Assembly: GCA_964016885.1 (NCBI GenBank)
Contig: OZ024740.1
Span: 297,290,001 to 297,354,000 of the forward strand
Reading direction: 5' to 3'
DNA: 64,000 bases
From: Eledone cirrhosa
Lineage: Eukaryota
How positions within the stretch are numbered: position 1 is the stretch's first letter; the number at the start of each line of letters is the position of its first letter. The notes beneath the pieces were generated by a model that was not told the origin of the DNA, made no database searches, and worked only from the letters and a program-made list of their open reading frames with translations. Positions 10,585-61,889 of this stretch are shown in pieces. A program made the position numbers and the translations under genes.

Positions 10585-11820
10585 ATATTTATTAAAATAA
10601 CAGATTAAAGTTTAAGCAAAGAATCGCTGCTTTCACCCTTAACGGGATCTTCTGAAACTAACAAAGTCAATCTGTAAACGCAGAACTGGATATTTAAAAA
10701 AACGTTGCAACCGGAGGAAGACAGGAAGACGATACTTTGGTTCGTGGAAACGTTCGCTGGCAAAGAACGGGAAAAAACGAATATAATACGTCATTAATAG
10801 GAGCGATGAAAAACAATTATGCGCAAAGACAGAACCACGTTTATGGTATAAAAGAGGTCGAAGACTAATGTTCTCTTAGGTGGTGCATAGAGACGTTCTC
10901 TGGCAATGAACGAAAAAAAACGAAGATAATACGTCATATGTGGAGCGTGGAGAACAATAGCACGCAAAGACAAAATCACGTAAATGGTATAGCAGAAGTC
11001 GTAGACTAAAATTCTAACTAGGAGACCAAATGAATCTCCGCTACAGAGTTAAGAACAAGGTAAATAAATACAATACAGAAGTAATAGAAATAAATAAATA
11101 CATACACGCAAACAAATACGTACATACACAAGCATACGCAAATACTTACCATAGGTATACAAAACCCCGCACATATAAATATGTGTGTGTGTGTATGCGT
11201 GTATACAAATAAATAAATAATTATATAAACGTATATAAATAAATAAATACGTATATAACAAGCGCACACACATACCTACATATAAAGACACGAATGTTCG
11301 CAGACGTAAGTCAACCAAAACATGAAGTACACATATACACACACCCACCATACATACGAACCTGTAGCGGAGATTTATTTGGTCTCCTAGTTAGAATTTT
11401 AGTCTACGACTTCTGCTATACCATTTACGTGGTTTTGTCTTTGCGTGTTATTGTTCTCCACGCTCCACATATGACGTATTATCTTCGTTTTTTCGTTCAT
11501 TGCCAGAGAACGTCTCTATGCACCACCTAAGAGAACATTAGTCTTTGACCTCTATTATAACATAAACGTGGTTCTGTCTTTGCGCGTAATTGCTTTTCAT
11601 CGCTCCTATTAATGACGTATTATATTCGTTTTTTCCCGTTCTTTGCCAGCGAACGTTTCCACGAACCAAAGTATCGTCTTCCTGTCTTCCTCCGGTTGCA
11701 ACGTTTTTTTAAATATCCAGTTCTGCGTTTACAGATTGACTTTGTTAGTTTCAGAAGATCCCGTTAAGGGTGAAAGCAGCGATTTTTTGCTTAAACTTTA
11801 ATCTGTTATTTTAATAAATA
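10585..11820. repeat. Long inverted repeat (~460 bp arms, 10585-11046 and 11362-11820) within (TA)n tracts
   Basis: Near-identical reverse-complement arms. Confidence 0.92.
11731..11806 (+). ncRNA. Hammerhead ribozyme, U4A core variant (mirror copy 10600-10675, minus)
   Basis: AGUUU-CAGAAGA-U CCC guuaa GGG U-GAAA-GCA..UGC-UU-AAACU, with distal stem I ACAGAUUGA/UUAAUCUGU. Confidence 0.6.
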
Positions 11821-11919
11821 TATATATATATATATATATATATATATATATATATATATATATATATATATATATATATATATATATAGAGAGAGAGAGA
11901 GAGAGAGAGAGAGAGAGAG

Positions 11920-13050
11920 AAATAGTTCCACAACGGTTAGTTCCCCATTACCGAGAACAATTATATCACCTTATTTGGATCATTAGCTCGGTTTAAATGA
12001 GGTTGTACGGAAAAGGAAAAACAACTGTTCGAATACGCATCGTATTTTTTATAGTGGTTTTGTGTGGAAATTGGATTTCTCCAGGCGTTGCAAACCTTAT
12101 TTATAATCTGAACTGCTGCTGAGGAGCGACGAATGTTTATCTTGGAGACTTGGGACCTGAGTTTTTGCTGTGTATGGTATATGCAAAGACATATGTGAGA
12201 GGATGGTTTCACCCCACACGTAGATGTTTCGTTTCTGAATTATCAGTAATGAAGCATATCTGATACCAGAGTTAGTTAGCATAGAGCTAGTAGAGCTCCG
12301 ATCGACCACTTAACTGATTCGTAGTGCTTTAGGTTCTAGGTATTTTGCTGTTAAGTGATGTGTGCAGGACGGTGTCATAAGGTAGTGATGGAATGACCCA
12401 ATGTTTTCAGAGATATTTATGGATTGGCAGGACTTAGGTTGGGATATGAGAGAAAGATCAAGGGTGTTTGTAATGATTGCGGTTCATTAAGAGATACATT
12501 AAGGTGTGAAACGCGTTGGTGTAAAGAATTAATGATTACAAAGGATTCAGTTTCTGCTCTGGTGGCACCGGTATATGATAGTATGAGAGCTATGAAGAGT
12601 TTTGAGTGCATATGTAACCAAGACAGACTGTCAAAACTGACAGAGAAGTACATACTCTCAGTACAGAAGGAGATATGGTCAAAGAGTTGTTGGGGATTCG
12701 AGAAATTCCGAAAGTGGCAGAATTAAAGGTGTACTTGGAGGAACACGTGTAAGGTTGTTTTCTTGATATCCAGGTGAGAAAGATAAGTCTCAGAGAGTAT
12801 GAAATCTAATGTATGCCCAGACACCACCTTTAGGAGAAAGTTTAGAGCAAAGATGGAAATTTGGGCCGCTGTGATGGACTACAAATAGTGGTTGAGAAAT
12901 GTGTTTCTTGGATATAAAAAGAATGAGGTATGTGCGTGTTAAGAAGAGATGATGTGTGGGGTCTTGGTTAATACAAATCCCCCAGAGAGTAAGAAAATAA
13001 GAGGATAAAAGGATGGAGAATTGAGAAGTGGGTTTATATTTTTTTTCTAA
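11920..13050 (-). mobile_element. Decayed APE-endonuclease LINE fragment
   Basis: Minus-strand remnants KGGVWAYIR, ETESFVIINSLHQRVSH and NTLDL...IGSFHH resemble LINE APE motifs. Confidence 0.45.
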
Positions 13051-59785: not shown

Positions 59786-59826
59786 TTATAATTTTGAAAA
59801 ACCACAGACCCTCCATTTCAACTCTA

Positions 59827-59862
59827 CTTTTGAAAAGCAGAAGAACTGCGAAACCGGTAAAG
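59827..59862 (+). ncRNA. Ultra-minimal hammerhead with U3:A8 core
   Basis: CUU-UUGAAAA-GCAG aagaa CUGC-GAAAC cg GUA-AAG. Confidence 0.62.
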
Positions 59863-61889
59863 GAACCAAATAATTATATATATATTTTTAAAAATAAGAC
59901 TTCAGTTGCATATTCGATTTCATCTTTTTTCTTCATACTTTCACTCGTGTAGGACACCTAGGTTATTTTTCATTTTGTAAAAAATCCCTCACTTTCTAAT
60001 ATATATATATATATATATATATATATATATATATACCAGCTATGTGTGGTTACACACTTGTAAAAATTATCTCCTGTGATTATTCATGTTTATTTATATG
60101 TTAATCAATCTCTAGTTATTATAAAATGCTCGGACCTACTCGTTAGAATCTTAGAGCTTATTTTGCGGGTGATATGGCGCATGTCTTTCTGGCATGACAC
60201 CCATAATTTTGATTTAGATTAAATTCATTTGATTTATTTTAATTTTGGATATAGATATATATTTATATATATATATATTTATATATATATATTTATATAT
60301 ATATATTTATATATATATATATATATATATATTTATATATATATATATTTATATATAAGTATGTATACGTACATACATATATGTATACAGACGTACAGTA
60401 GTATGTATATATATATACATACATTGCACACATATATATATGTACGTATGGATTCACCGAACATTTATTATAATGCTCGGGACAAAGCGTTTTCGGTGTC
60501 GGGAAATACGGTATATATCAGATTGAAGGCAGTAAAAACCAGTTACTCGATACTTGGGATAGTAAAGTGGGCAATATGGAAAAATTCAGGACCCTGACGG
60601 CTGAGCTCTGGCCGTTTCAACTAGCTGTTGAAACGGCCGGAGCTCAGCTATCGTGGTCCTGAATTTGTTCATATATATATATATATATATATATATATAT
60701 ATATATATATATATATATATATATATATATATATATATATATATATATATATATATATAAAGAATGTATAATAACAGGTAGACATCATAAAAAGGTAATT
60801 TATTCCGTGTGCTTACAAGTGTTTCCACGGTGGTACTGCAGCCTAGTTCCGCTACGTGCAAATTCACAAGTACTTGCAGAACTCGAATATCCAATGCTGT
60901 GTCCACTGTTTCCTCAGAGCAGAATGGTAAATGTACAATGTAAATACCCTTAAGTGGGGTTGTTGGGGAAGATAGAGTAGAACAGGAAGAGAGAAAAGTA
61001 GGGAAGAGGGAGAGAGAAAGAAAGATATGCAGGGGTTGGAGAAGTAGGAGAGAGTGGCTTGTAGATATCTTAATCAAAATGTTATGGTAGGGGTTTTATT
61101 ATACTGGTTACTTTTGGAGAGATGCGTTGATAGTTAAGGTCGGAATTATTTATTGCCCCAGAGGGCAGGTTCATAGATGTTGAGAGGGAGGTAGGTCAAA
61201 GGTGAGAGAGAGAGAGAGTGTAATGGATGTAGAGAGAGATATAGGTAGAGAGGGGACAGATAAAGTATGTGTGGTGAGTGAACTTTTGGTTTTGTAGTAG
61301 TAATCTAGGAATTGCACTGAGTTACCATGTATAGTGATAAGCAGTGTATTGACTTGTAGTGTGGGGGGAAGAGAAGGTTGTTAGCTAGAAAGTGGTGTTA
61401 TAGTTACGGGTTCGAATGTTAACTTATTTTATAGTGAGAGAATTCATTCTTTATATACACTCCGGAATACTGAAGGATCAGGAACTAAGTTTCTTGAACA
61501 ATTCTTCCATAACTCGTAGAGTAACCTCTTACCGTACGTCAACCATATCCAGTGTAGTAATTAACCATTACTACATCTTGGATAATCCTATACCTAATAT
61601 ATATATATATATATATATATATATATATATATATATGTATATTATATTATAGTGGTAGAACACTGGAAGGTAATATCCGTAGTGGTAGAGCACTCAGTCC
61701 ATGGGACGAGTTAGGAAGAAGTGGTTACACAACAGTTAGTTCACCAAATTATATTTTATATATATCTGTGTGTATATAATCATAATTCATTAAGAACCCA
61801 ACGAAGGATGAAAAATAAAATCTTTTATAGATTTTTATTTTTTGAATTAGTTTTGCTTTTCATTTTTGAAGATTCTGTATTTCATAAAT

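Follow-up and report, generated by a model that had tools for sequence, protein, structure and literature searches.

The hammerhead motifs of the analysed window (the whole stretch of Eledone cirrhosa DNA, 64,000 nucleotides) are best explained as genomic fossils of PLE retrotransposition, with a minority of families (A and D) being retrozymes that borrow PLE protein; we give this reading a probability of about 0.8. The genome would host many PLE families, mostly of the Hydra type and some of the Neptune/Nematis type, carrying a hammerhead near their 3' end. Their GIY-YIG endonuclease would cut TA microsatellites, and reverse transcription would begin past the 3' side of the ribozyme, from either of two fixed sites; because it would usually halt early, the product would be a non-coding stub of 150-450 nt holding a whole or half ribozyme. 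Where both cut strands primed, one from each site, an inverted pair would be left with a tail on one arm only. Families A and D would have lost the ORF and been kept as tandem units of ~440-470 nt, that is, as non-LTR retrozymes using the PLE protein. The folds, family links, end positions and tandem periods in this explanation are seen directly, and two-site initiation and both-strand cutting are taken from published work rather than from this genome. The features of the window are listed in Table 1.

Table 1. Features of the window associated with hammerhead motifs and PLEs.
Feature	Position	Strand	Description
Family I	10498..11817		One inverted-pair insertion; A4 hammerheads 10654-, 11752+; predicted Hydra-type PLE 3' end
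Family P	19335..19497	-	Decayed palindrome; first core half intact, second altered
Family P, further half copy	about 19695-19790
Hydra-type endonuclease remnant and downstream sequence	19811..21800	-	Endonuclease about 21350-21660
Possible minimal hammerhead, U6	near 20065	-	Read by eye; link to endonuclease remnant ambiguous
Family A	22361..22921	+	Canonical hammerhead 22745; ~438-nt non-coding unit; short inverted arm 22397-22514
Family N, half hammerhead	23020..23157	-	Ends inside helix II
Neptune/Nematis-type PLE, RT and GIY-YIG	23238..27140	-	Frameshift near 24860-24890
Family N palindrome, half hammerhead	28408..28606	+	Centred on helix II
Family B	29306..29476	+	Canonical hammerhead 29346; predicted 3' stub of Hydra-type PLE
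Palindromic 3' stub of Nematis-like PLE	31836..32174, also 33090-33216		Hammerhead just upstream of retained part
Palindromic insertion	32362..32713	+	U3-G8 hammerhead 32623
Rare-family hammerhead, G17	33880..33955	-	33938
Family C	37614..37847	-	Canonical hammerhead 37720; no link to an endonuclease in 1.5-kb flanks
Family B copy	38218..38351	-	Core at 38347; helix I truncated
Family D	39200..39469	+	Canonical core 39255; 7-bp helix III
Family E	42067..42240	+	Canonical core 42140, weak helix I; predicted Hydra-type 3' end (one locus)
Family E, decayed copy	42803-42952	-
Palindromic 3' stub, same family as the PLE at 23238-27140	49970..50221
Family F	52121..52462	+	Canonical hammerhead 52281, inverted arm; predicted Hydra-type 3' end, 1.2-kb 3' UTR
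Family G	52962..53211	+	Canonical hammerhead 53079; predicted Hydra-type 3' end
F-related subfamily	57700..58069	+	Canonical hammerhead 57880
Family H	58440..58630	+	Canonical hammerhead 58476
Family N palindrome, half hammerhead	58679..58850	+
U3-A8 hammerhead	59415..59505	+	At 59431; no local relative
Family M	59796..59998	+	U3-A8 minimal hammerhead 59830; related to 3' end of the 23238-27140 PLE
Family N palindrome, half hammerhead	60544..60670
Canonical-core matches (C3 position and strand)	22745+, 29346+, 37720-, 42140+, 52281+, 53079+, 57880+, 58476+

Motifs were sought on both strands with a structure descriptor that reads helix I, core, helix II, core, helix III, cut site and helix I; its initial version, over-strict on helix II, gave three matches. 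The strict descriptor yielded six matches in the window compared with a mean of 0.05 (maximum 1) across 60 block-wise dinucleotide shuffles, and at the working threshold eight canonical-core type-I hammerheads were detected versus none in each of 10 shuffles. These have the type-I fold, with a conserved core between three helices and helix I open. The stems covary, 13 of 18 pairs having changed on both sides, and 93% of stem cells are paired versus 35-54% after sliding, a lenient control because the 24 rows were descriptor-selected and related to one another. The core is invariant while the stems vary, and position 7 is free to vary. The motifs had been noted in a preliminary description of this DNA. 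Across the genome, a single motif class gave 80,656 matches versus 193 for controls. The hammerhead motifs in the window are thus confirmed as real, and an origin as chance matches in AT-rich, hairpin-rich DNA is refuted for the canonical set by the shuffles, the genome-wide counts and the covariation. Chance may account for weak matches, among them those at 59237 and 49090, since shuffles searched at a low threshold with one core mismatch yield ~1.6 matches per window. Two descriptor matches, at 24750 (antisense, inside the PLE ORF) and at 16485, were discarded as likely due to chance. In an Rfam scan of the window, the best 150 of 360 matches contained no hammerhead and consisted solely of spurious hits of miRNA models to hairpins and TA tracts.

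The preliminary description had presented the window as a dense field of such motifs. However, its density (125/Mb) is close to that of the 349.8 kb sampled elsewhere in the genome (41 matches, 117/Mb). Elements of this kind are typical of the whole genome, where they seem to number in the hundreds of thousands, with an extrapolated total estimated at about 220,000-350,000 hammerheads. The proposed targeting of TA microsatellites was well founded: a TA tract lies within 250 nt downstream of 34 of the 41 sampled matches, and upstream of 18 of 41, compared with 24% of random positions. Seven of the nine sites initially described as unmodified are among the eight canonical matches, and 39247 and 38310 fall outside that set. 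The former is nevertheless unmodified, with a canonical core at 39255+ and strong helices I and III that were read by eye and missed by the descriptor; the latter keeps its core (38347-), but its helix I is broken by truncation. Among the sites proposed as variants, 10600/11731 correspond to 10654-/11752+ (A4 in 10/10 local copies), 32619 to a U3 hammerhead at 32623+, and 33894 to a G17 hammerhead at 33938- with just two genome matches, while 59827 holds a hammerhead in a different register (U3-A8 motif at 59830+). The putative folds at 59229 and 49085 are weak, and no relative of either was found in the 987 kb of DNA compared. The decayed or half copies at 19333, 28407, 42821, 58680 and 60584 were borne out, and that at 20035 would be a minimal motif with U6, as read by eye. 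The supposed stray at 23347, however, is the 3' motif of the 23238-27140 PLE itself. Hammerheads at 58476+ and 59431+ were absent from the earlier list.

A multi-family, PLE-related origin, as already proposed, is supported by seven window families that trace to the 3' ends of ORF-bearing PLEs, some via just one or two loci. These families are 5'-truncated, often with an inverted arm. Five traces (the families at 29346, 53079, 52281, 42140 and 11752) lead to Hydra-type elements. An endonuclease end of this type lies ~120-190 nt upstream of family B in 17/29 non-window loci, ~1.0-1.2 kb upstream of family G in 5/29, and 1.2 kb upstream of family F in 1/29, the UTR being collinear in three more; families E and I have this link at a single locus each. 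For family I, the endonuclease end is 152 nt upstream in locus L029, which is collinear with locus L076. The endonuclease proteins lack CCHH and combine the CxCx5C linker with CxxC/CxH (complete in B and G, partial in the broken copies of F, E and I), and these families also carry their hammerhead at the 3' end and lie in (TA)n. The assignment of B, G, F, E and I as Hydra-type is predicted from the C-terminal endonuclease region, as the loci stop short of the RT. The links of E, I, M and F come from one or two loci each and could be chance junctions.

The other two traces, from the families at 59830 and 23383, lead to Neptune/Nematis-type elements. The PLE at 23238-27140 has the corresponding order of RT, CX2-5CxxC linker and GIY-YIG with CCHH, with one linker Cys altered and a frameshift in the window copy. 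Its 3' motif (~23345-23390) has U3-A8 and C13, like its young relatives: C13, together with U3-A8, was found in 28 of 31 motifs from 30 Neptune/Nematis-type loci, and a canonical second core half in 0/31. Family M, which retains A13, has a Neptune-type endonuclease 271 nt upstream in locus L019.

On the reading of the preliminary description, most families would be self-cleaving retrozymes that are non-autonomous and depend on PLEs such as the one at 23238-27140 for mobility in trans. The motifs are, as it stated, missed by ORF annotation, most window copies lack an ORF, and several families have no ORF link; for families C, H, N, P and those at 32623, 33938 and 59431, no endonuclease link was found in flanks of mostly 1.5 kb. 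The interpretation suits families A and D well. In family A, its own 3' part occurs head-to-tail upstream in 23/29 loci, found with a query that spanned the unit junction and thereby favours tandem copies; two cores lie 436-440 nt apart in four loci, and insertions mostly comprise 1.1-1.7 units, often with an inverted arm. An endonuclease link was found in 0/37 family A copies whose flanks were compared. Family D gave 798 matches, with same-strand arrays of 449-472-nt period, as judged by match spacing alone, among the first 100 listed. Alone among the resolved window families, A and D look like non-autonomous retrozymes, and they would be mobilised in trans by PLE protein. As a general claim, however, the interpretation is improbable: the seven traced families are 3' ends of ORF-bearing elements, and no same-strand tandem copy was scored in F (0/44 copies), C (0/34), G (0/31) or B (0/28). 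Nor do the data point to the 23238-27140 PLE as their mobiliser: it is frameshifted, represents one family among many and is of Neptune/Nematis type, and most traced families are Hydra-type.

Fossilised PLE retrotransposition would also leave the inverted pairs observed. In 75 of 85 pairs, from 10 families, the arms end at different 3' positions. These form two clusters, one at the far end and the other ~40-115 nt upstream of it, at a site that is specific to the family. Each family thus has two fixed 3' ends, one used by each arm, and the inner site is followed by AT-rich sequence in 6/7 families examined. Many of these insertions are near-perfect inverted repeats of 120-350 nt in TA, as would be expected of MITEs (DNA transposons) with an incidental resemblance to hammerheads. 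That origin is largely refuted and very improbable: the length and terminal inverted repeats are not fixed, since centres vary between copies and the two arms differ in length, only one of them bearing a tail; the same sequence also runs on into PLE 3' UTRs.

Fold-back of a single cDNA on the helix II hairpin, in place of two primings, is a more serious alternative. Family N comprises 38,537 half-hammerhead arms, which stop inside helix II, versus 416 intact cores; 20 of 22 pairs share one 5' stopping point, within helix II, and paired arms are a median 93% alike versus 83% between loci, both as fold-back would predict. However, in 12/75 pairs (one of them, of 966 nt, counted uninspected) the tail-less arm extends beyond the tailed one on the 5' side by more than 15 nt, so that each arm holds sequence missing from its partner. 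The window insertion at 10498-11817 is among them: its two hammerheads are arms of one insertion, 97.6% identical, with the 3' tail on the minus arm and the plus arm extending 315 nt further 5'. Fold-back may explain part of the inverted pairs and is unlikely to be their general source, for which double priming would account. The core of family N is U3-A8; a C3-G8 core was sought and none was found, the five or six look-alikes being point-changed inverted arms.

More tentatively, at somewhat less than even odds, these observations can be joined in a wider reading. The genome would hold the record animal hammerhead complement (2-3.5 x 10^5 intact cores in ~45-50 families, above the 126,247 of axolotl), and its copies would record a missing step of PLE transposition, in which each end of a (TA)n break primes a cDNA, the two start sites of one RNA or of sister RNAs being used, and these overlapping cDNAs stall at helix II and join through that self-complementary hairpin. 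If true, the ribozyme would be the structure by which PLE insertions become MITE-like hairpins, in their tens of thousands, cleaving or not. A high-copy family has C13 fixed, which suggests that cleavage is perhaps dispensable. Against the main explanation, no excess of 5' ends was seen at the cut site (one case within 3 nt across 29 families), and cleaved linear templates have thus left no trace in the genome. Any hammerhead cleavage here would be presumptive.

For genome annotation, these results mean that the short repeats of this genome, palindromic or of SINE size, include a large class of PLE stubs. Such stubs may also be misfiled in the repeat annotation of related genomes, given that, among recent insertions, a 2026 octopus repeat annotation counts 893 SINE families as unclassified and its main text does not contain the word 'ribozyme'. 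For ribozyme biology, the dozens of families amount to a naturally occurring collection of variant cores (U3-A8, A4, C4, C13). Higher hammerhead counts are known from Schistosoma, which could match the density found here. The giant squid paper gives 235 Rfam hammerheads. In the literature searched, which included few subscription papers, there was no description of such a complement or of PLE double priming.

The kind of element is already known (Cervera 2014, 2020; Craig 2021; Frangieh 2024), and the claim of a new element community therefore falls away. The genomes described by Cervera & de la Pena 2014 (PMC4209133) share with this one the type-I folds, with their palindromic helix III and extra base starting helix II, and the U3-A8 variant. 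Common to both, too, are the large number of families in each genome, the solitary motifs ('probably related to truncated PLEs') and motifs paired on opposite strands at distances of 100-700 bp. However, 2,000-9,000 motifs per genome were counted there, compared with 80,656 for one class alone here, and in most folds here a short loop still closes helix III; the supplement file searched holds no octopus entry. The Hydra clade of Craig et al. 2021 (PMC8557442) shares the C-terminal endonuclease, the CxCx5C linker, the lack of CCHH, CxxC, CxH, hammerheads, (TA)n insertion and truncated or inverted copies with a one-sided tail, although tails measure ~40-115 nt here and 30-40 there. That study included 23 Hydra proteins, the cephalopod entries among the supplement rows listed being Naiads, and called the origin of inverted copies undefined. 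With the copy numbers available here, that origin becomes testable by counting. Non-LTR retrozymes (Cervera & de la Pena 2020, PMC7229834; Li et al. 2026, 10.64898/2026.07.22.740005) are, like A and D, non-coding, with one type-I hammerhead and a head-to-tail arrangement, a likeness at the DNA level; the units of A and D differ from those described in measuring 438-472 nt, and family A in its mostly 1.1-1.7 units and frequent inverted arm. Poseidon PAc (Frangieh et al. 2024, PMC11167929) likewise has two internal initiation sites that define the tail, cuts and extends both strands at AT-rich targets, and gave no reported reads ending at the cut site, in line with the 5' ends here. Its start sites lack homology to the target, whereas here AT-rich sequence follows the inner site. 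What is new here in relation to these systems is the scale, the two fixed 3' ends per family with one on each arm, and the predominance of half arms over intact cores in family N.

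The descriptor recovered six strict type-I hammerhead matches in the window, compared with 0.05 per shuffle (60 shuffles), and eight canonical-core matches, compared with none (10 shuffles), the latter threshold being kept for all later counts. Eight of the nine sites to which a preliminary description had assigned unmodified cores were upheld, that of family D by eye and by family, and the ninth is truncated. Most of its variants and half copies were as described, three of the latter being half hammerheads of family N; two weak sites went unconfirmed, and two good hammerheads were missing from its list. 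Stem covariation among genomic copies, whose absence that description had named as grounds for refutation, was found in an alignment of 24 copies: the core was invariant, both sides had changed in 13 of 18 stem pairs, and 93% of cells paired (35-54% with partners slid). Since these rows were descriptor-picked and are kin, the covariation is supportive and not independent. Under constrained folding, the hammerhead fold of window copies lay 0.8-8.6 kcal/mol above the minimum, and most of these copies formed no helix III as monomers, in agreement with the dimer-dependent folds described for hammerheads of Penelope-like elements (PLEs). Most window copies are probably inert, being either single or paired with an antisense arm that would be expected to sequester them. 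A hammerhead-like fold with the core variant C4 lies outside the range first described, and a C4 family is also present in loci L004 and L010.

The window had been described as a dense field, but its 125 canonical matches/Mb is ordinary for its 3.0-Gb animal genome: 35 stretches of 10 kb taken at round coordinates outside it (349.8 kb; a 36th requested coordinate does not exist) held 41 matches, or 117/Mb, with 0, 0, and 0 in shuffles. Direct extrapolation gives 351,000 hammerheads genome-wide (bootstrap 231,000-488,000). The sole direct count, from a pattern covering the core and helix III but not helices I and II, was 80,656 matches (control, 193). This pattern occurred 15 times in the sample against 9.4 expected, with 12 of the 41 descriptor matches fitting the pattern and 12 of the 15 pattern matches passing the descriptor. 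Because the sample is thus richer than the genome and scaling by the pattern gives a lower figure (220,000-275,000), the complement is estimated at about 220,000-350,000 canonical hammerheads. Variant cores are additional (10 U3-A8 matches in the sample, one per shuffle). When 330 matches drawn from 974 kb were clustered, 30 groups with two or more members resulted, of which one is spurious; the 21 singletons listed besides include a few sub-variants.

Loci were retrieved for five window families and the window's PLE, and two endonuclease-type profiles were built from them. Families C, H, N, and P and sites 32623, 33938, and 59431 showed no endonuclease link in the flanks covered, mostly of 1.5 kb. 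Among 29 other loci of family B, 17 have a Hydra-type endonuclease whose end lies about 120-190 nt upstream; for family G, the corresponding figures are 5 of 29 and about 1.0-1.2 kb. In family F, one of 29 loci has such an endonuclease ending 1.2 kb upstream, and three more are collinear over 0.4-1.1 kb; families E and I are each linked through a single locus with collinear support, family M through one locus to a Neptune-type endonuclease, and two palindromes to a Nematis-like one. The B and G proteins have a CxCx5C linker, CxxC, and CxH and lack CCHH, matching the Hydra features given by Craig 2021 (PMC8557442), which describes Hydra elements as bearing hammerheads, with nearly all insertions in (TA)n.

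The window's own PLE, encoding RT and GIY-YIG, had been named as an example of the PLEs proposed to mobilise the hammerhead families. This copy is split by a frameshift relative to an intact relative, and no tie to the Hydra-type families was found. It has no fewer than 150 close copies, the longest open frames among them reaching 1054 residues, and its 3' motif is a U3-A8 hammerhead variant; the canonical second core half occurs in none of 31 motifs, and C13 in 28. Position 13 is conserved in the hammerhead consensus. An array of this family (L062, L063; period 3.86 kb) carries in each unit an inversion inside RT and a hammerhead of another family.

Families A and D fit non-LTR retrozymes in their sequence arrangement. 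Family A has its own 3' part head-to-tail upstream in 23 of 29 loci, from a query that favoured tandem copies, and two cores 436-440 nt apart in four loci; no endonuclease link was found for it in 37 copies and the flanks covered. Family D has 798 matches, with same-strand runs at 449-472 nt spacing among the first 100 listed.

The 3' half of family N, a family of half-hammerhead palindromes, has 38,537 exact genome matches (control, 0), both arms being counted. Its first core half, at three loci, is the U3-A8 variant and is followed by a helix II roughly 60 nt long. An intact-core pattern, which may overlook other subfamilies, gave 416 matches, among which position 7 varies; 3 of 82 local arms, one of them selected, reach the core, and in 20 of 22 pairs the arms stop at most 15 nt apart, in helix II. 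By these counts, roughly 97-99% of arms terminate within the ribozyme. Intact cores form inverted pairs up to 3 kb apart, suggesting a long parent element, and no ORF was seen. In places, the cut 5' end runs straight into the first half of a hammerhead from a different family, which suggests that the template was switched from one family to another at the ribozyme. A further U3-A8 family whose helix II is likewise long occurs five times in L055, L081, and L214.

Copies have 3' ends fixed against TA, variable 5' ends, and frequently an inverted arm. In 75 of 85 inverted pairs (10 families), the two arms do not share an end position; their ends fall into clusters, one at the far end and one at an inner site that is specific to the family. 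Fold-back may be the source of the nested pairs, and paired arms of family N are closer in sequence (median 93%) than arms from different loci (83%). In 12 of the 75, however, the arm lacking the one-sided 3' tail surpasses its tailed partner in 5' reach by >15 nt, which means that neither arm was copied from the other. Such pairs would be accounted for by two priming events, whether on a single RNA or on sister RNAs, followed by joining at the far ends, as judged from 85 pairs, many at similarity-chosen loci. For a Poseidon PLE, Frangieh 2024 (PMC11167929) describes reverse transcription from two start sites bounding the tail, cutting and extension of both strands, a hammerhead that requires the protein for cleavage and is dispensable for in vitro insertion, and zero RNA reads ending at the cut site. 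The last point is paralleled here by 5' ends of genomic copies, which do not pile up at that site.

Features of the window and of related loci (G000:C#, contig coordinates of the genome; inner site, distance in nt)
Feature	Position (strand)	Inner site	Remark
Family A	22745
Family B	29346, 38310	65
Family C	37720
Family D	39255
Family E	42140
Family F	52281	95-100
Family G	53079
Family H	58476
Family I	10654/11752	65-115
Family M	59830	65-70
Family N	28407, 58680, 60584; also 23020	80	first three previously listed as half copies
Family P	19335
Neptune-type		40
Nematis-linked palindromes	31836, 33090
C4 fold	3920 (+)
PLE	23238-27140 (-)		Neptune/Nematis-type
PLE-family array	G000:C2:359515875-359534048
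Family N junctions (examples)	G000:C7:7118469-7118517, C3:248802737-248802776
Tc1/mariner-type remnant	27161-28055 (-)		~100-nt terminal inverted repeats (89%), HTH_32 match; adjoins PLE 5' end
202-residue frame	545-1153 (-)		no Pfam match; taken to resemble a hAT/SCAN-type transposase fragment
SINE-like family, high-copy	8422-8542, 16540-16705, 21850-22035, 35718-36004, 37303-37411, 42342-42722, 46956-47148, 48003-48108, 58876-58964		85-95% identical; no hammerhead match
400-nt direct repeat	53699-54099, 55448-55856		94% identity; between very long degenerate TA tracts
Hairpin/inverted-repeat elements	2027-2240, 35673-35787, 40367-40498		no hammerhead match

No account of such a complement in cephalopod-like genomes was found in the literature covered, which is incomplete; the highest published hammerhead count found is that of axolotl (126,247). 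Cervera and de la Pena 2014 (PMC4209133) had already interpreted single hammerheads scattered through genomes as probable truncated PLEs and had reported both pairs on opposite strands and the U3-A8 variant, and retrozymes and their PLE origin have also been published (Cervera & de la Pena 2020, PMC7229834; Li et al. 2026, 10.64898/2026.07.22.740005). The hammerhead complement of this genome thus adds a new and very large example to kinds already on record.
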